Source: Desulfurococcaceae archaeon (lineage in GTDB: Archaea; Thermoproteota; Thermoprotei_A; Sulfolobales; Desulfurococcaceae). From it: a stretch of DNA of 64,000 nt. Below, one piece after another: positions 21,417-56,464 of this stretch. A program made the translations under genes and the position numbers. Location of the stretch: NCBI GenBank assembly GCA_041287395.1, contig JBEULI010000029.1, positions 4,837 to 68,836 of the forward strand. Reading direction: 5' to 3'. Position 1 is the stretch's first letter. Each line of letters opens with the position of its first letter. The notes below the pieces were generated by a model. It was not told the DNA's origin. It saw only the letters and a program-made list of their open reading frames with translations, and did not search any database.

Positions 21417-22034
21417 CTAAATCGATAGCACGTGCCTAAATGGGTTGTTGTCGACGACTATTTCCACGCCCTCTTCGGGCCTTTCCTCCCTGCGCGCGAT
21501 CACGAGCGTGCCAGCGCTCGTGGCCATTTCGCACGCGTTACGGTTTGGAGTGCCCAGATCGCGGCAGGCCTCGGCCAGGAAGCTGGTGATCCCCGTCCTC
21601 AGGTACAGGCCCAAGATCACCCACGCCCTCAGGGGCCCCCTAGCCACTCGGCTGGCTATCTTGCCCGGGATAAGCGTAAGGGATGCTAGGCTGTTGTCCA
21701 CCACGTCGAGGATCGCTGGCAGAGGCTCCCAGTCCTCCGTCTCCAGGTACACCCCGTACCCGCCATAGAACATCGCGCTCCTCGCAACCCTGACGAGGAA
21801 GCCCCCCTCGACCGCTGTCATGCCCTCCGCTATTTCGCGGCAAGCATTGCGCGTGAGGCCGTCGTCCAGTTGTCGCGGCACGTTCGAGACGACCCTCCAA
21901 TTGCTTCCCTTCCTCAACATGTTGATCCTGTAGTTGAGGGCCGGCACAGCTACTATGCCCCTCAAGGGCTCGTCGACCAGCTCGCCGAGCACCAGCACGT
22001 AGGGGCAGCTGAACAGCTCGTCGTAAGCCCACAC
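21417..22034 (-). CDS. hypothetical protein
   Basis: 205-aa ORF, co-directional with nnr and 5 nt upstream of it. Composition is normal. I recognised no motif. Confidence 0.45.
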   Translation of the reverse strand: MWAYDELFSCPYVLVLGELVDEPLRGIVAVPALNYRINMLRKGSNWRVVSNVPRQLDDGLTRNACREIAEGMTAVEGGFLVRVARSAMFYGGYGVYLETEDWEPLPAILDVVDNSLASLTLIPGKIASRVARGPLRAWVILGLYLRTGITSFLAEACRDLGTPNRNACEMATSAGTLVIARREERPEEGVEIVVDNNPFRHVLSI

Positions 22035-22174
22035 GGGCCCTCCCCCACTCTTAGGAGCTTCCCGGCGCGATAAGCAATGTCGTTCGCGGGGAGACCAATT
22101 GGAACCGTTCCAGGGCTACCTGGAACGAGCTCATTTAAAAAACGGAACGATAAGGGGGCTCTCGGTGGAATGGG

Positions 22175-23389
22175 ATGGACGGCTGGGGACTTAAGGCCTT
22201 GGCCGGTCTCGCGATAGTGGCAGTGGTCGTTGGACTGCTGGCGGCCATGCCATTCGTCGCCAGAGCGTACAACGACAACGCCAACGAGGAGAAGGAGGAG
22301 GTCGACATAGCCAATGGAACGATCGCCGTGATGCCTATACTCGGTGTCAATGCCACCCAGGCCATAGCAGCAGCCTATAACGTGAGGAATGTCACATATC
22401 CGCTGTTCCAGTGGGAGATCTCGAAGAACGTCACTGCAGCCAACGTCACCCTCAACGTCGGCGATAAGCTGCTGGCCATGGCTGAGTCGTCCAACAATAC
22501 CAGGAGGGCGGTGGCGTTAGCCCTGGCCTCGATACTGCATTACAGCCAATCCGTGGGACTTGCCACGATAGTCCTCCACAGGAACCTCTCCGAAGCCCTC
22601 GGGCAGTATGGCAACGTGACGGCAGACGTCGTTTTGTCGGTGTTGGCGCTGGACCAGGAGTTCAAGGGAGTGCTGCAACAGGGAATTAAGGTGGCAGACG
22701 ACCTCGGCATAGGCGTCCCCAACCTCACCAACGTGCTAATCAGCAAGGGCGACGACCTGATAGCGAACGCCACTGCGCTCCTTCAGTCCAACGAGACCTT
22801 GAAGGCTCTGAAGGCCTCCATCGAGGCTTATTACGCCTACGACCTGGCATATGGCGTGCTGGTCAAGGAGGTCGCCCTGAACTCGCTGGGGCTAAAGGTC
22901 GAGCTCTCGCTGGCAAAGCCCATAGCGCCGATGTTCGTAATTTGCAAGGTCAAGCCCAAGAGCCTATTGCCGGCAATTAAGGGGCTGCCGAGCGACATGA
23001 GAAGGGCCATCGAGGAGGGCATACAGAATGGAACCATAAACGATGTCGATGAGATGATCGAGCACGTACGCAACTACTCAGCCAAGGTGAGCGTGGAGAT
23101 CGAGAGGGAGGAGGCTGAACACTTCGCCAATTTCGTGACTGAGGTCGTTGTCAAGATATTCTCAAAGCACGGCCTCAAGGTGGATGAGGATCTGGTGAGG
23201 AACACGGTAATGCAGGCAGTGAATCAATGGATTTCGAAGGGCAACCTGAGCGGCAACATGTCTAGCGTGCTCAGCAACGTGCTTTCCCAGGTCGGCCAAC
23301 AGCTCAACGTGAAGCACAGGGCCAATGTGGATGTGGAGACGGAATTCGAGCACTCAGTCACAATAGTCATAATTAAGTACAAACACTAA
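22175..23389 (+). CDS. N-terminally anchored/secreted, largely helical glycoprotein (hypothetical)
   Basis: Hydrophobic N-terminus LAGLAIVAVVVGLLAAMPFVA. About 15 N-x-S/T sequons by eye. Otherwise no recognisable domain. Confidence 0.6.
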   Translation: MDGWGLKALAGLAIVAVVVGLLAAMPFVARAYNDNANEEKEEVDIANGTIAVMPILGVNATQAIAAAYNVRNVTYPLFQWEISKNVTAANVTLNVGDKLLAMAESSNNTRRAVALALASILHYSQSVGLATIVLHRNLSEALGQYGNVTADVVLSVLALDQEFKGVLQQGIKVADDLGIGVPNLTNVLISKGDDLIANATALLQSNETLKALKASIEAYYAYDLAYGVLVKEVALNSLGLKVELSLAKPIAPMFVICKVKPKSLLPAIKGLPSDMRRAIEEGIQNGTINDVDEMIEHVRNYSAKVSVEIEREEAEHFANFVTEVVVKIFSKHGLKVDEDLVRNTVMQAVNQWISKGNLSGNMSSVLSNVLSQVGQQLNVKHRANVDVETEFEHSVTIVIIKYKH

Positions 23390-23459: not shown

Positions 23460-24287
23460 ATGCGCCGGAACTCCTTGGGCGCGGCACTGGCGTTGGTATT
23501 GTTGATCGCGTCCTCTGTCGTTTGGGCACATGCGCAGAGCGTTACCTCAATTAATATTTACACCTTTTACGATCCAGCCGCGGGCCAGGGCTTCGTGGTG
23601 TACAACCTCACGTTGGCTGGCGTGAGCGGCCCCACAATCCTCTACATAGCTCTGCCGTCTGACAACGTCACGAGGATCGTTAGCGTGGCCAACTATTCCG
23701 GGAGCCCCCTGCCCTACCAGTTCTTCCCCCAGAACAACAGCGTGGCGGTGGCCGTCTACGGGAGTACTGGCATCACGATCACGTACACAGTCTCTGGACT
23801 CTTCTACGAGGCTGGCATAGGGACCTACACGGCAATCATAGACACCACCTCCCTGCCAGCGGATCCCACATGGACCATAGTCATTCCCGGCGACTACTCG
23901 GTCTCGTGCTCGTCGCAGTGTTCCTATGCCTTCGATCCCAGCTCGAACGCGACCACGATCCGCATAATGGGTCGTAACGTATTCCTTCTCTCGTTAATGC
24001 TCCCCTTAGGCGCGACGGCAACGACTGGAACGACCACTACGGCCACCGCACGGCCGTCGCCGACGGCGAGCCCCACGCCACCTGCTTCCACGCCTTTAAC
24101 GACCTCGGCCCCCGGAAGCTCGGCGCCGGCCGGCACCACGCAGGCTGCGGGCCGGGCGACCTCGTCCGTGCAGAGCACGTCAGCTCCCAGCACTGCCAGC
24201 CCTCTGGGGCAACAGCTGCTGACGGCCATAGCCATCGCAATAATAGTGGTAGCGGCCATAGCCATCGTAGCGACGCGTAGGCGATAG
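23460..24287 (+). CDS. surface protein: signal peptide, ~150-aa ectodomain, Thr/Pro/Ser-rich linker, C-terminal TM anchor
   Basis: Signal-like N-terminus ALALVLLIASSVVWAHAQ. Linker TATTGTTTTATARPSPTASPTPPASTPLTTSAP.... C-terminal anchor LLTAIAIAIIVVAAIAIVATRRR. Confidence 0.65.
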   Translation: MRRNSLGAALALVLLIASSVVWAHAQSVTSINIYTFYDPAAGQGFVVYNLTLAGVSGPTILYIALPSDNVTRIVSVANYSGSPLPYQFFPQNNSVAVAVYGSTGITITYTVSGLFYEAGIGTYTAIIDTTSLPADPTWTIVIPGDYSVSCSSQCSYAFDPSSNATTIRIMGRNVFLLSLMLPLGATATTGTTTTATARPSPTASPTPPASTPLTTSAPGSSAPAGTTQAAGRATSSVQSTSAPSTASPLGQQLLTAIAIAIIVVAAIAIVATRRR

Positions 24288-24637
24288 CTACGCCTTTTCC
24301 CCATTTCCTTGGACTTGGTTCAGTTAACGGAAGCTGGTTCGCAAGTCCCGCAAGGCTCCACGCCCTCGAGGCAATGCTGCGGCGCAACCCCCGTTTTTAA
24401 GAACTTTCATGAGTAGCAACGTTGGACGCCCAACGCAATGTCAGGGGGAGGGATTAACGCCGCCGACGGGCACGGCTCTCGCGGCTCGTTCCCGAAAAGC
24501 GCTCCTCCGCGCGGTAAGCGGTTTCAATGTCCCCGACAAGGAAGTGTTAAAAGCCATCCATAATAGGTTCAGGTAACGTTAATATCCCCATAGAGCGTCG
24601 GTGAATCGCATAAGGCAAACTCTCGCGGGGGCTAACA

Positions 24638-25615
24638 ATGAATTTGCGGGGCATATTCGTAGCGCTGGTCCTAGCTGCGATGGTGATTGCCCGCGGGACA
24701 TCGGCACAGGCCGTTAACGGCGTCAAGTACGAGGCGTTCTACGATCCAATTAATGGCAGCGGCATACTCGAGGCGTCGTTCAGCGTGGAGACCAGCGGCC
24801 TAGCGGAGGTCGTTATGCCCGTGAACCTGTTCAGGCTCAACGCCACGCTGAAGCTCATCAACGTCACTACCCGGCCCCCCGACGCGTTGCAGGCGTTCAC
24901 CTATGACAATTCGAGCGGCTCACTGGACTTGCTCGTCAACGGCTCCTGCTCAGTGGACGCCTTCTTCTACGTCGAAGGCGTGCTCGTGGAGGCGTCGCCC
25001 GGGACGTTCATCGGCGTCGTGGACACGGCCAGGCTAAGCGTCGCTCCAACACTCCTGATCGAGCTCCCAGGAGCGTACAACGTCACCTGTCAGGCACTGA
25101 TGGGCAAAGGAGCCTGCTGGTCGACGAGCGTTGGCTCCATGACCATCATCAACGCAACGGGCAATGACATCTTCAACGTGATCGTGGTGCCCGCCGGTTC
25201 CCAGCCCCAGCCGCAAAGCCCGCCGAGCACCCCATATTTCCTCCTGGCCGCGGCATCTGCCGCGCTCGCGGCATCTGCGGCTCTCGCGATCTTCCTTAGG
25301 AGGCGGGGGCGCGGCACGGCTGAGATAGAGGTGGGCACGGCGCGAGGGATCGAGGAGGACGACGTCGCGCTCGACATAATTGTCGCGCTGGGGAGGGCTG
25401 GCGAGGAGGGCCTGAGGCAGAGCGAGATCGTCACGAGGACAGGGAGGCCGAAGTCCAGCGTTAGCAGGAGGCTGAAGAGGCTGTCGGAGGAGGGCTACGT
25501 CGAGGTCGTTAGGGCCGGGAGGCACAACTTCGTGAGACTTACCAGGAAAGGGCAGAGGCTATACGAGAAATTGGCAAAGGATCTTGACAAGGGAAACGAA
25601 GTCACTTCCTCCTGA
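24638..25615 (+). CDS. membrane-tethered winged-helix (MarR/ArsR-like) protein with N-terminal extracellular domain paralogous to 23460..24287
   Basis: Signal-like N-terminus FVALVLAAMVIARGTSAQA. The ectodomain shares FYDP..G.G, GT....VDT..L...PT..I..PG.Y.V.C with its neighbour. TM segment YFLLAAASAALAASAALAIFL is followed by RRRGRG. The C-terminal wHTH is LDIIVALGRAGEEGLRQSEIVTRTGRPKSSVSRRLKRLSEEGYVEVV. Confidence 0.7.
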   Translation: MNLRGIFVALVLAAMVIARGTSAQAVNGVKYEAFYDPINGSGILEASFSVETSGLAEVVMPVNLFRLNATLKLINVTTRPPDALQAFTYDNSSGSLDLLVNGSCSVDAFFYVEGVLVEASPGTFIGVVDTARLSVAPTLLIELPGAYNVTCQALMGKGACWSTSVGSMTIINATGNDIFNVIVVPAGSQPQPQSPPSTPYFLLAAASAALAASAALAIFLRRRGRGTAEIEVGTARGIEEDDVALDIIVALGRAGEEGLRQSEIVTRTGRPKSSVSRRLKRLSEEGYVEVVRAGRHNFVRLTRKGQRLYEKLAKDLDKGNEVTSS

Positions 25616-26315
25616 GGGCTCCCAAGAGCTCGATTGCCCTCTGGAGCTCCAGCGGCGATGAAATTATGAGCCCATCCACGATGCCCTCGAGCGACTCCAA
25701 AAGGCCGGCCAACTCGCCCTCCGAGAAGCCCGACTGGCCCAGCGCCCTGAACAGCTCCACGTTCTTGCCCACTTCCAATAGCGCGAAGGGCAACACCTTT
25801 ACCCCGGCACCCCTGGCATCCCTGGACACCTCGTGCATTTTCGACAGGCTCGCCTTCGTGAAGTGTATGGGGGCAACGAAGTCGGGCCTTAGGGAGAGCC
25901 TCTCGCGGATCTTCGTGACATCGTACCTGAGGCTCACCAGGAGGCCGAGCTTGAGCTTGTTGACGTGCTTCCTCGCGATCTCGAGCGCTTCCTCGCTGCT
26001 CACGTGACTAACGGGGAGGCCCACCTTTGGCTTGTCGCCCTGCACCAACAATAGCCCCTCCAGGCCGAACTCCTCGGCAGCCCTAGCGACCGATAGCAGC
26101 TTCAGGGCGTTGACGTCGGCCAACCTAAGGCTAACGATGACCTTGGCGTCGGGCGACGAAAGCCTAACGAAGACCCCGACCGCCAAAGGATCTACCACTG
26201 GCTCGCCGCCTGGGCCGTCGGGGAAGAAGTAGCCGTCGACCAGCCCCCTTCCGCGCTCGATGACGCGTTCCACGCGCCTTTTGCTGGTCGTGGGCAATTC
26301 CACGTATACTTCCAT
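25602..26315 (-). CDS. methylenetetrahydrofolate reductase-like TIM-barrel protein (tentative)
   Basis: 237 aa. YVELPTTSK, DGYFFPDGPGG and LEGLLLVQGDKP resemble MetF-family blocks. This is a weak, memory-based call. Confidence 0.4.
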   Translation of the reverse strand: MEVYVELPTTSKRRVERVIERGRGLVDGYFFPDGPGGEPVVDPLAVGVFVRLSSPDAKVIVSLRLADVNALKLLSVARAAEEFGLEGLLLVQGDKPKVGLPVSHVSSEEALEIARKHVNKLKLGLLVSLRYDVTKIRERLSLRPDFVAPIHFTKASLSKMHEVSRDARGAGVKVLPFALLEVGKNVELFRALGQSGFSEGELAGLLESLEGIVDGLIISSPLELQRAIELLGALRRK

Positions 26316-26437: not shown

Positions 26438-27583
26438 TTGGACATGGAACGCGTCAGGGCGAAGGCGCTCCTGATCATGCTTGTTGCATTGCTGATGGCG
26501 CAAACCTCTTCGCGCGTTAGCTCAGCGGACACATCGCCAATAACCATTTTGTACAACGGGATGGTGAGCGTAACGGCCTCGAGCGAGTATGTGAGCCGCA
26601 TTTGTCCGATGTGCAACTCGACAACCCTACAGCTGACGATCTACTACGAGGTGATCGTGAACTTTACCTATGAGCTTGTCAACGGCCACATGTTCTTTGC
26701 GGGCTCGTATGCGGTCAGGCCCAAGGGGATCGATGGCTCGCTGGGGCTCGTCTCTCGCCAGCTCCCCCCAGAATTTGTCGATGACCTGTACGCCTCGCTA
26801 AAGGTCGCCGGGACCTATTCCGGGAAGGATGTTAACGACCCGCCCCTGCTCATATCCATCGGCACAACAGGTCCCGAATTGAGGCAAGCGCCCAGGAACG
26901 GAGATCTAGTGGACTTCGCCCGGATGGGCGTGGACATGTACCACTACAGGTTCTTCAACGCTGTCTACGGAGTTCTCAGGACCTGGGAGCTGATCGACCT
27001 CTACGTGGAGCCTTTGACGGGCACGCCCGTGGTGGTTTCGAGGACGGTCAACGAAGTCGGTGCCGACGGATCCTCGCTGACGGTATACCAGTTCGTCAAC
27101 GGCGTCCCCGGCCTATCCTCGCTCGAGCAGCGTATTGGAAGGACAGTGGTGCAGTTCAGGACGTTGTACGGCTTCACGGGGAACGTGCTTGTGCTGTCCC
27201 TCGGCGATAACATTTCGTATACAATCAATGGCCGCTGCATCTCGCTTGACCTGCATAAGGCCTCTCCGCTGATTCTCGTGGTCTCCACCGACGTCTCGAG
27301 CCCGCTGGCCAACTCAACGGGGCTCGCGCGAGTTGAGATCGGCAACGCCGAAGTGTTTTATACGCCATCGCCAACGATCTCAACCAACTTAAGCGTGTGC
27401 ATAGCCAACGCAACCTTCCTCGAGGCCAGCAACGCCGCCCCTCCAGAGGCTGGAGCAAACGTGCCGAGCAGCTCGAGGTTCAACGCGGCCGAGGTCTCAT
27501 TCGTCGTGGCGTTCGAGCTCCTGATCATTTATGGGGTCTACAGGGTAATTGGATTGATCTCGCGCAAATTGGGCGCCACGTGA
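26438..27583 (+). CDS. exported hypothetical protein with signal peptide and C-terminal TM anchor
   Basis: N-terminus ALLIMLVALLMAQTSS. C-terminal anchor VSFVVAFELLIIYGVYRVIGLI. Several N-x-S/T sequons. Confidence 0.6.
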   Translation: MDMERVRAKALLIMLVALLMAQTSSRVSSADTSPITILYNGMVSVTASSEYVSRICPMCNSTTLQLTIYYEVIVNFTYELVNGHMFFAGSYAVRPKGIDGSLGLVSRQLPPEFVDDLYASLKVAGTYSGKDVNDPPLLISIGTTGPELRQAPRNGDLVDFARMGVDMYHYRFFNAVYGVLRTWELIDLYVEPLTGTPVVVSRTVNEVGADGSSLTVYQFVNGVPGLSSLEQRIGRTVVQFRTLYGFTGNVLVLSLGDNISYTINGRCISLDLHKASPLILVVSTDVSSPLANSTGLARVEIGNAEVFYTPSPTISTNLSVCIANATFLEASNAAPPEAGANVPSSSRFNAAEVSFVVAFELLIIYGVYRVIGLISRKLGAT

Positions 27584-29806: not shown

Positions 29807-30865
29807 TTGGAGCTACTGTACGTGGCAAAGGATGCAGCGTTCGCTGGCGACGTCCACGTCAGGTCCTTCGAGGTCAACGTTGAACTCGGGGATAGCGGCG
29901 TCAGCAGGGCCGTGGTGCCGCTGGACATCGGGGCGCCCAAGGGGACAACCGCGGCGCTGGCGCTGATAGAGATGGTGGTCGAGTCGCAGGGGAAACCCAT
30001 TGGCTGGAAGCTGAAGCTCGAGGGCATGAACGTTGCTAGGGAGTTCAAGCCCCTCCTCAGCGTCAGGGAGGGGGGGAGGACGCTCCACAAGCTCGTGTAC
30101 GACGTCACGAGCCTCCTCAACACCCCCCGGGCGCTTGGCAAGAGCTCCTATGCGCTGTCAGTGAGGCACGTGGGAGGGGATAACGCAAAGATCAGGGGGA
30201 TAAACGCAGTGGTGGTTCTCGAGTACCCTGGCGCCTCGTCGGCGCTCAACTACTTGACCGGCTTCAAGCGGCTGGCCGCAGGCGAGTCATTCGAGGCAAG
30301 CTTCAACCTGTCTGGGGGCGAGGCATACGTTCACGCAGCTTTCGTGCCCCTGGGCAGGGGCGGCAGGGTGAGGGTTTGCGTTGACGACGTATGCCAAACA
30401 GATCACGCGGTCTTGGGCGAGTACGAGCCAGTGGTCGTGGGCCCCCGCGAGGGCCTGAGGAAGGTGTGGCTGAAGTACGAGGGCTCCCGCGACATATTCC
30501 TGTCAAGTCTCTTGGCCTATGGGGCTTTGGTGCCGGAGCCGTCGTTGAGGATAACGTCCTACGAGGTAGAAGAGCATGGATCAACGGTGAAAATTAGGGC
30601 CAGGATCTCGAACGTTGGTGCGGCCTCCCCAGACCATTCCCTGGTGACCGCGCTCAGCGCTGGCAACGTCCTCGGCGTCTCGCGCATTGGGAACCTTGCG
30701 CCAGGCGCAGAGGAGGACGTGGTGTTGAACGTTGGGCGTCCCGCCAACGGGGAGCTCGTGCTCAGGGTCGTCTGGAGGAAGCTTGCTAGAGTCAGGTTCG
30801 CAGAGGCCAGAATAGCCGTTGGAGGGCGCAATGCCGGCCCAGCCCAACGGCGCGGTCAAATGTAG
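29807..30865 (+). CDS. hypothetical protein with C-terminal CARDB/Ig-like beta-sandwich, no signal peptide
   Basis: 352 aa. The C-terminal ~100 aa (ITSYEVEEHGSTVKIRARISNVGAASP...LAPGAEEDVVLNV) resembles a CARDB-type domain. Confidence 0.5.
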   Translation: MELLYVAKDAAFAGDVHVRSFEVNVELGDSGVSRAVVPLDIGAPKGTTAALALIEMVVESQGKPIGWKLKLEGMNVAREFKPLLSVREGGRTLHKLVYDVTSLLNTPRALGKSSYALSVRHVGGDNAKIRGINAVVVLEYPGASSALNYLTGFKRLAAGESFEASFNLSGGEAYVHAAFVPLGRGGRVRVCVDDVCQTDHAVLGEYEPVVVGPREGLRKVWLKYEGSRDIFLSSLLAYGALVPEPSLRITSYEVEEHGSTVKIRARISNVGAASPDHSLVTALSAGNVLGVSRIGNLAPGAEEDVVLNVGRPANGELVLRVVWRKLARVRFAEARIAVGGRNAGPAQRRGQM

Positions 30866-56353: not shown

Positions 56354-56464
56354 TGCCGCCGCCGGGATTTGAACCCGGGACAACCGGATCTCCCCCTGGG
56401 GGACGGCTTCGGCGTTCGCCACCCGTATGAGTCCGGCGCTCTGGCCGGGCTGAGCTACGGCGGC
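56354..56464 (-). tRNA. tRNA with CAU anticodon (elongator Met or Ile2) containing a 36-nt intron
   Basis: Reverse-strand hand fold: acceptor GCCGCCG/CGGCGGC, D arm GCTC..GAGC, anticodon stem CCGGA/TCCGG with CTCATA + 36 nt + A, T arm CCGGG-TTCAAAT-CCCGG, discriminator A. It lacks the A1:U72 pair expected of an archaeal initiator. Confidence 0.85.

Follow-up and report, generated by a model that had tools for sequence, protein, structure and literature searches.

A transmembrane transcription regulator (TTR) was defined by Demey et al. in 2023 as a protein that carries a DNA-binding domain and at least one transmembrane (TM) segment in one polypeptide (PMC10269533). The accompanying census covers 404 archaeal species at about four TTRs per genome, with enrichment in Thermoproteota, and reports that hybrid TTRs are absent from archaea (PMC10269533); for T. 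calderae and T. aggregans it counts one to two (PMC10269533). Here we describe protein B, which is encoded by the open reading frame (ORF) at 24638-25615 (+) in a 64-kb stretch of DNA from a Desulfurococcaceae archaeon (the whole stretch is called the window below). Because B has Pfam matches to winged helix-turn-helix (wHTH) families and a TM helix at residues 202-220 in the same chain, it is a TTR by the definition of Demey et al. It is encoded beside a paralogue, A (23460-24287, +), and downstream of gene U (22175-23389, +), which is divergent from gene h205 (21417-22034, -). We find that the fusion of ectodomain, TM helix, and wHTH domain is conserved, and that the motif GGAAC-N-GTTCC upstream of such genes is a candidate autoregulatory operator that is new in this analysis.

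The bacterial proteins ToxR, TcpP, and CadC carry an N-terminal OmpR-type DNA-binding domain and a C-terminal periplasmic sensor, and they are type II membrane proteins that lack a cleaved signal peptide. In B this order is reversed, such that a signal peptide and an N-terminal ectodomain come first and a MarR/IclR-like wHTH domain is located at the C terminus. Moreover, Trans_reg_C is not among the Pfam matches of B at E values up to 1, which places B outside the ToxR/CadC group. What B has in common with ToxR, TcpP, and CadC is the one-component design, wherein an extracytoplasmic domain, a membrane span, and a winged helix are joined in one polypeptide (PMC10269533), and TTRs of the ToxR/TcpP/CadC type are thought to bind DNA while anchored in the membrane (PMC10269533).

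Among archaea, the only membrane-bound regulators that have been studied are ArnR and ArnR1 of Sulfolobus acidocaldarius, which are one-component proteins of Thermoproteota, as is B, and which control genes for surface structures (PMC6396743). ArnR is reported to be conserved in Sulfolobales and Desulfurococcales (PMC6396743). However, ArnR consists of an N-terminal HTH, a cytoplasmic HAMP and sensor region, and two C-terminal TM segments, with no ectodomain (PMC6396743), and it has no detectable sequence relationship with B beyond the generic HTH. B therefore does not belong to the ArnR family.

The remaining comparisons concern the C-terminal position and the type of the DNA-binding domain. 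Vibrio ChiS and TfoS and the Bacteroides hybrid two-component systems join extracytoplasmic sensing to a C-terminal cytoplasmic DNA-binding domain, which shows that such a domain is workable on a membrane sensor (PMC11856585; PMC10269533). They are unlike B in being multi-domain, kinase- or receiver-containing, multi-pass proteins with AraC-type or other DNA-binding domains. Soluble MarR regulators resemble B in that its wHTH core passes the MarR_2 cut-off, and GenBank names its orthologues 'MarR family', whereas B has neither the MarR dimerization helices nor the ligand pocket, is anchored in the membrane, and has a cytoplasmic part of only about 85 residues.

The closest catalogued architecture is the Pfam combination DUF7345+DUF7343, in which both families are of unknown function. 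Proteins of this kind (e.g., P0108) resemble B in having a signal peptide, an extracytoplasmic domain of ~130-170 residues, one TM segment, an Arg cluster, and a DUF7343 wHTH domain; P0108 also carries a T/P-rich linker, and its wHTH domain is homologous to that of B (hhalign 95.8%, E=6.6e-9). The ectodomains, in contrast, are not detectably homologous, since hhalign aligns the wHTH domain alone. DUF7345 (PF24036) gave no match to B at E values up to 1 and was not among the best 25 of 27 families found in 41 members of the B family. The first-pass annotation had known of no described equivalent to B. This was too broad, given that orthologues are annotated as MarR, Pfam holds DUF7345+DUF7343, and TTRs have been censused, but it stands in the narrower sense that no such type-I layout has been characterized. 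A literature search yielded no relevant paper on DUF7343, DUF7345, COG2512, or TCELL_0700.

Architecture, topology, and family of protein B

Both ORFs named by the first-pass annotation (A and B) are present at its coordinates and on its strand, and the parts of B follow one another in the order that it had proposed. B is a protein of 325 residues, and its N terminus, MNLRGIFVALVLAAMVIARGTSA, is followed by Q (QAV). Residues 1-23 (24638-24706; this and the following segments of B are on the + strand) form a predicted signal peptide with cleavage at TSA/Q, as judged from the hydrophobic h-region and the A/Q junction. The same Ala/Gln junction is present in A and, by eye, in several other family members. 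The ectodomain comprises residues 24-190 (24707-25207; ~167 residues), is modeled as an all-beta sandwich, and carries seven N-X-S/T sequons. The TM helix, LLAAASAALAASAALAIFL, spans residues 202-220 (25241-25297) and is followed by RRRGRG. Its coding DNA contains an 18-nt tandem duplication at 25249-25284 (two copies of CGCGGCATCTGCCGCGCT) that yields the repetitive helix SAALAASAALA, and the resulting Ala/Ser-rich segment has a Kyte-Doolittle hydrophobicity of 2.25, compared with values mostly from 2.0 to 3.3 across the family.

The cytoplasmic portion begins with a juxtamembrane segment (residues 221-241, 25298-25360) that includes RRRGRG, a phi-E-phi-E motif, and D241; in the family, E231 is present in 93% of members and D241 is invariant. 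The wHTH domain (residues 242-323, 25361-25606) has the order H1-H2-H3-wing-C-terminal helix, with H3 as the recognition helix (PKSSVSRRLKRL). Within residues 242-301 it scores above the Pfam gathering cut-offs for DUF7343 (PF24034; 41.6 bits versus 27.6, E=1.1e-10, residues 259-301), MarR_2 (41.6 versus 27), and HTH_IclR (39.9 versus 22), so that B is a DUF7343 member. MarR proper (PF01047), a family of dimeric soluble repressors of about 140-150 residues, scores 18.7 bits, which is under its cut-off of 24.6, and the cytoplasmic portion of B amounts to a bare wHTH and a single C-terminal helix, so B is not a true MarR protein. NCBIfam gave only sub-threshold wHTH matches. In sequence searches of the PDB, the domain matches MarR proteins best, PcaV (4fht; E=0.0035) being one of them.

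An AlphaFold2 (AF2) model of B, built with 41 homologues, has a mean predicted local distance difference test (pLDDT) score of 90.3, with values of 94-98 for ectodomain residues 31-180 and 96-98 for the wHTH domain. Its layout comprises strands between residues 26 and 185, a TM helix at 200-223, disorder at 224-240, and an H-H-H-beta-beta-H wHTH domain at 242-323.

To assign sides of the membrane, we relied on statistics over 42 family members. The ectodomain side contains 199 N-X-S/T sequons in 8040 residues, compared with a shuffled expectation of 89, whereas the tails contain one in 4070 residues, compared with an expectation of 10. The mean number of K and R residues among the 12 residues that flank the TM segment is 0.36 before it and 3.55 after it, and all 42 members obey the positive-inside rule. 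These data place the beta-domain outside and the wHTH domain inside, as the first-pass annotation had supposed, and nothing in them places the wHTH domain on the outer face.

An exhaustive HMMER search over 1.84 billion cluster representatives (clustered at 50% identity) returned 119 family matches. In about 40 representatives of 300-370 residues the alignment runs between profile positions of about 8 and about 325, so that these proteins cover the full-length fusion, and at least 60 proteins have an N-terminal hydrophobic segment, a TM segment at about 200-260, and a wHTH tail of about 100 residues. DUF7343 was detected in 39 of the 41 aligned members. The same fusion, sought in other archaea, is thus found full length in dozens of independent genomes and metagenome-assembled genomes (MAGs); members include Thermogladius calderae 1633 (AFK51124.1), Thermogladius sp. 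KZ2Tp1, Thermosphaera chiliense, and many Desulfurococcaceae MAGs. GenBank has listed AFK51124.1 under the name 'regulatory protein, MarR' since 2012, and one member is an 'uncharacterized membrane protein' in IMG. B and its Thermogladius orthologue are 36% identical over residues 21-314, and B is accordingly a member of a conserved Desulfurococcaceae family with the layout ectodomain-TM-wHTH. A word-indexed homology search, limited to 8000 candidates, gave no match to B alone and two to the 41-sequence profile. A genome scan with B alone gave no match, and one with a three-sequence alignment matched only Thermogladius sp. KZ2Tp1.

Conservation is uneven along the chain, with scores of 0.74 for H3 and 0.65 for the wing, compared with 0.34 for the ectodomain. 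The family recognition helix reads PKSS(V/I)SRR(L/V/I)KRL, and K272, R277, and G294 are invariant. The canonical fold, together with a recognition helix and wing that are the most conserved regions, supports the proposal that the wHTH of B is a DNA-binding domain, and a slowly changing, putative DNA-reading surface beneath a fast-evolving exterior matches the conserved operator candidate described below.

The paralogue A (275 residues, +) lacks the wHTH domain. It consists of a signal peptide (residues 1-25, 23460-23534), an ectodomain (residues 26-185, 23535-24014), a T/P/S stalk of ~65 residues (residues 186-252, 24015-24215), and a TM segment (residues 253-271, 24216-24272) with a TRRR tail, all on the + strand, which agrees with the Thr/Pro/Ser linker and C-terminal anchor reported for it at first pass. 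At least 20 A-like representatives of 247-281 residues have the same plan of ectodomain, stalk, and anchor without a wHTH domain.

The ectodomains of A and B had been aligned only by eye; BLASTP now aligns them over 160 residues at 32% identity (E=2e-13), and when the signal peptides are removed and the search is run against all ORFs of the window, the E value is about 4e-11. The alignment scores 58.2 bits, compared with a maximum of 27.7 in 1000 shuffles, so the paralogy holds. The shared motifs listed for the pair (AQ.V, FYDP..G.G, and GT...DT..L...PT..I..PG.Y.V.C) are all in the alignment, except that VDT reads IDT in A. No third ectodomain paralogue was found among the ORFs of the window.

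Foldseek relates the modeled ectodomain to the N-terminal domain of M1 aminopeptidases, ITIH1, and the putative Parabacteroides protease 3kd4 (E about 4e-6 to 7e-5; TMq about 0.3 over about 210 columns). Among viral structures, the ectodomain matches giant-virus proteins of the inter-alpha-trypsin-inhibitor (ITI) family, and the wHTH domain finds its structural matches in small wHTH proteins of archaeal viruses (TMt up to 0.83). The likeness is at the level of fold only, since VIT and Peptidase_M1_N gave no Pfam match to B at E values up to 1, and in all 41 members the ectodomain is without a Pfam family.

Note that B in the window keeps a Cys pair, C151...C160, after PG.Y.V, which resembles the CxxC/CxxxC of A-like proteins and is missing from the other B-like sequences listed. 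This could reflect gene conversion between A and B in this genome.

The arrangement h205(-)/U(+)/A(+)/B(+) is collinear with the locus of Thermogladius sp. KZ2Tp1 (designated L004 among the loci that we fetched), where identities are 55% for YjeF, 37% for h205, 34% for U, and 36% each for A and B. The identity of about 35% for U, A, and B, compared with 55-61% for flanking housekeeping genes, fits surface exposure. Beyond Thermogladius, synteny of U-A-B extends to several Desulfurococcaceae MAGs. The same block or subsets of it occur in L002, L003, L005, L007, L008, L011, and L012, of which L011 and L012 were located by way of an A-like protein from another clade. In L003, L004, L011, and L012 an A-like gene directly precedes a B-like gene; L007 (Thermosphaera) has U followed by B with no A, L005 has U followed by one gene that encodes an A-type ectodomain, a long stalk, a TM segment, and a wHTH domain, and L002 and L008 have B only, with no U.

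U (22175-23389, +) opens the block in the window and in five fetched loci (L004, L005, L007, L011, and L012). It encodes a secreted protein of 404 residues with an N-terminal signal or anchor and as many as 15 N-X-S/T sequons. The protein is 100% identical to 'hypothetical protein ABWK00_05225', each of its sixteen homologues is labeled 'hypothetical', and its AF2 model (pLDDT 67.5) is all-alpha with a helical bundle at 60-237. A Foldseek search of this model against the PDB gave no match with E<0.5, which makes U an orphan fold that offers no functional lead.

A and B are separated in the window by 350 bp (24288-24637), compared with ~50-150 bp in other loci. This gap includes AT-rich, promoter-like stretches near 24547-24600 and contains no GGAAC-type site. 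An RNA gene or structure in the gap was considered and ruled out, with no Rfam family and a structure z-score of +1.45.

Downstream of the B-like gene, eight loci (L002, L003, L004, L005, L007, L008, L011, and L012) encode a conserved cytoplasmic protein of 157-174 residues. Its gene (L004 6894-7418, L007 4980-5504, L008 5023-5547, and L011 6838-7362) shares 4-8 bp with the B-like gene in L004, L007, and L008, elsewhere 2-73 bp lie between the two, and PriL comes next except in L008. The protein matches no Pfam family, and its sequence has no significant relative in the PDB.

A candidate operator and the mechanism it suggests

The intergenic region between h205 and U is a control region common to both genes, and it contains a 13-bp palindrome, TGGAACCGTTCCA, at 22100-22112 with the core GGAAC-N-GTTCC. 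Immediately downstream, at 22121-22149 (+), is a putative promoter core for U, in which a TATA-like element (ATTTAAAAAA, 22133-22142) is flanked by the half-sites TGGAACG (22121-22127) and CGGAACG (22143-22149). The TATA element and an AAAACGG sequence are conserved in L004 and L007. Within the 64-kb window the 13-mer is unique, and 0.07 occurrences are expected when one mismatch is allowed. The identical palindrome occurs once each in L004, about 23 bp upstream of the TATA element, and in L006 (Aeropyrum-type), and its core is present in L010. In all, GGAAC-N-GTTCC was found four times in the 155,441 bp examined (window and fetched loci), and each of the four sites precedes, by 66-130 bp, the first gene in a cluster that encodes a TM-wHTH protein. 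The expectation is 0.13 occurrences overall and 0.0016 in such upstream windows.

The Aeropyrum-type loci belong to a group (g1) of more remote relatives of B that is described below. These loci and those of the core family have no gene in common other than the one for the TM-wHTH protein, and the palindrome therefore tracks this gene. Direct or single CGTTCC half-sites occupy the equivalent place in L003, L005, L007, L009, L011, and L012. We regard the palindrome upstream of the operon as a candidate operator whose conservation supports a DNA-binding, and probably autoregulatory, role for B. The arrangement of the sites, one upstream of the TATA element and others on its two flanks, is compatible with either sign of regulation.

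A separate observation concerns the g1 loci, where a very large secreted protein of 739 to over 1484 residues (L006 854-3073, -; L010 1-3819, -) is encoded divergently from the TM-wHTH gene. There the palindrome sits between the two genes, an arrangement that echoes the pairing of regulator and surface protein in the window.

From these data we favor, at somewhat better than even odds, a model in which B is a conserved, vertically inherited, type-I transmembrane one-component regulator that binds GGAAC-N-GTTCC as a dimer and autoregulates U-A-B, with A as a partner or decoy. A cleaved signal peptide would export the N-glycosylated beta-sandwich ectodomain, and the wHTH domain would be held at the cytoplasmic face by the single TM helix and the ~20 residues of the juxtamembrane segment. 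Working as a dimer at the membrane, B would bind the palindrome and the GGAACG half-sites beside it within the U-A-B promoter region. The state of the ectodomain, whether set by a ligand, by contact with glycans or the S-layer, or by oligomerization, may thereby be coupled to U-A-B expression, which would make the ectodomain a sensor. A, which is co-encoded, kept the ectodomain and an anchor but would have lost the DNA-binding tail, and it probably partners or competes with B, either as a co-receptor or as a decoy deficient in DNA binding.

Several points weigh against this model. The six loci listed above have half-sites only, in variable arrangement, and L002 and L008, where U is missing, have none. 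The motif was picked post hoc from three loci, L006 and L010 are mutually related, and the palindrome could belong to another regulator. The spacing of 350 bp between A and B renders their co-transcription uncertain in the window. The topology is based on hand-made statistics over the 42 members rather than on a dedicated predictor. As modeled, the ectodomain is a generic beta-sandwich, from which no ligand pocket was inferred, and is not a known sensor fold. The gene for the 157-174-residue protein and PriL are absent downstream of B in the window, where the region is rearranged, such that a partner may be missing from the picture. Finally, we found no experimental characterization of any protein with this type-I layout in the literature.

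A tentative extension of the model, which we would not expect to hold in full, treats the locus as a self-contained module by which hyperthermophilic archaea would signal from the envelope to DNA. The B receptor dimer would act on its own operator, U, as a secreted orphan glycoprotein, would be the output or the ligand, and A would form heterodimers that are incompetent for DNA binding and thus provide negative feedback. In that case A would be the prokaryotic counterpart of Id proteins and other dominant-negative partners.

The main alternative to a DNA-binding regulator, although an unlikely one, is that the wHTH domain serves as a docking or tethering module that links a U-A-B envelope complex to a cytoplasmic partner or, structurally, to the chromosome. 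The conserved cytoplasmic protein encoded after the B-like gene in eight loci, with overlapping genes in three, would be a possible partner; the locus adjoins PriL in most genomes, and the winged-helix domains of archaeal MCM, RPA, and CdvB are reported to mediate contacts between proteins. However, both the gene for the 174-residue protein and PriL are absent from the locus of the window, where B is intact. Likewise, the pattern of a recognition helix and wing that are the most conserved regions, with K272, R277, and G294 invariant, is typical of DNA readers, and docking is also disfavored by the Pfam DNA-binding wHTH families that match above their cut-offs and by the conserved palindrome upstream.

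It also seems improbable that B is inactive in the membrane and is activated by regulated proteolysis, in which a site-1 cut in the ectodomain or stalk followed by intramembrane cleavage would free the wHTH tail of roughly 100 residues as a soluble regulator, a possibility that the first-pass annotation had raised. The single-pass type-I topology suits such processing, as does the flexible linker (Pro/Ser/Gln or T/P/S) on the outer side. In addition, the juxtamembrane segment, with its R/K cluster followed by phi-E-phi-E-...-D, is conserved yet disordered in the monomer model, and it is therefore a candidate interaction or cleavage element that leaves room for a variant of the model with proteolytic release. 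The Ala/Ser-rich, weakly hydrophobic TM segment of B in the window might be taken in the same sense, but it is particular to this genome, and most TM segments of the family are ordinary Ile/Val/Leu helices. Moreover, the block carries no conserved protease gene in the loci compared, and bacterial TTRs and ArnR work while bound to the membrane (PMC10269533; PMC6396743).

Origin of the A and B pair and neighboring genes

The weaker HMMER matches have only the TM segment and the wHTH domain in common with B, in proteins of the same length and layout, and their ectodomains form three groups. In hhalign comparisons of ectodomains, the B family matches g2 at 93.8% (E=1.7e-7), g2 matches g1 (which includes Aeropyrum MAG proteins) at 97.1% (E=5.6e-11), and the B family matches g1 at 58.8% (E=9.4e-5). 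The third group, g3, corresponds to Pfam DUF7345+DUF7343, and its ectodomain profile matches that of the B family at a probability of only 0.1%. Homologous ectodomains in the remote groups g1 and g2 indicate that the design ectodomain-TM-wHTH is older and broader than the A/B pair.

The first-pass annotation had described the sensor domain of B as duplicated from a surface protein, and one reading of the locus is accordingly that A represents the ancestral surface protein and that B arose when a copy of its ectodomain was fused to a TM-wHTH unit. We consider this quite improbable. That A and B are adjacent paralogues, that anchor-only A-like proteins are numerous (the 20 or more clusters noted above), and that B of the window shares with A-like proteins the Cys after PG.Y.V would all fit such an origin. 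The reach of the wHTH-bearing layout into g1 and g2 runs counter to it, as do proteins that combine an A-type ectodomain, a stalk, a TM segment, and a wHTH domain (P0008, P0009, P0010, and others), including the one that occupies the syntenic locus in L005, a genome without an A gene. Furthermore, A-like proteins are not monophyletic in a neighbor-joining tree of ectodomains (0 of 50 bootstraps), although this tree is weakly resolved. These three lines of evidence (the A-type-wHTH fusions, the L005 locus, and the polyphyletic A-like proteins), which depend on a phylogeny of weak resolution, make it more likely that A arose from a paralogue with a wHTH domain whose tail was lost than that the opposite occurred, so that the direction given at first pass is probably to be turned around.

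That a sequencing or assembly frameshift artificially fused the gene for a surface protein with one for a small wHTH protein has next to no chance of being correct and is already refuted by conservation. Even though no identical copy of B was found in the protein collection and the window comes from a MAG, dozens of independent genomes and MAGs, among them the complete genomes of T. calderae, Thermogladius sp. KZ2Tp1, and T. chiliense, encode the full-length fusion, about 40 representatives keep it, and the AF2 model is confident across both domains.

The remaining features of the region are as follows. Gene h205 (21417-22034, -) encodes 205 residues, has no Pfam match, and has homologues at the equivalent position in L002 (E=8.5e-13), L004 (E=8e-40 at the identity given above), L005, L007, L008, and L011; no significant PDB sequence relative was found for it, with one chance-level match at E=0.019. 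Gene X (25602-26315, -; 237 residues, no Pfam) is convergent with B and overlaps its 3' end by 14 bp, and gene D (26438-27583, +) encodes a further secreted protein with a C-terminal anchor. Both X and D have Thermogladius homologues in rearranged positions. A few kilobases downstream of B, 29807-30865 (+) encodes a further envelope protein of 352 residues, which contains CARDB, the cell-adhesion-related domain of bacteria. Farther away, Rfam identifies a 111-nt tRNA at 56354-56464 (-; 56.5 bits) that is not in the ARAGORN list and is probably an intron-containing archaeal tRNA. A link of the locus to defense systems was dismissed, since PADLOC reported only generic similarity to the Csa3/CARF wHTH.

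Significance for signaling in Thermoproteota

To our knowledge, almost nothing has been established experimentally about how Thermoproteota sense conditions outside the cell. These archaea largely lack two-component systems, and ArnR and ArnR1 sense on the cytoplasmic side. The labels 'MarR family transcriptional regulator' under which B-like proteins are filed mask a distinct membrane architecture and an ectodomain family for which there is no Pfam model. The family offers a predicted operator and target operon together with a naturally occurring paralogue that lacks the DNA-binding domain, and its presence in cultivated species (Thermogladius calderae and Thermosphaera) makes each step of the proposed mechanism testable. 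The B family is a compact and conserved candidate for direct signaling from the outside of the cell to DNA.

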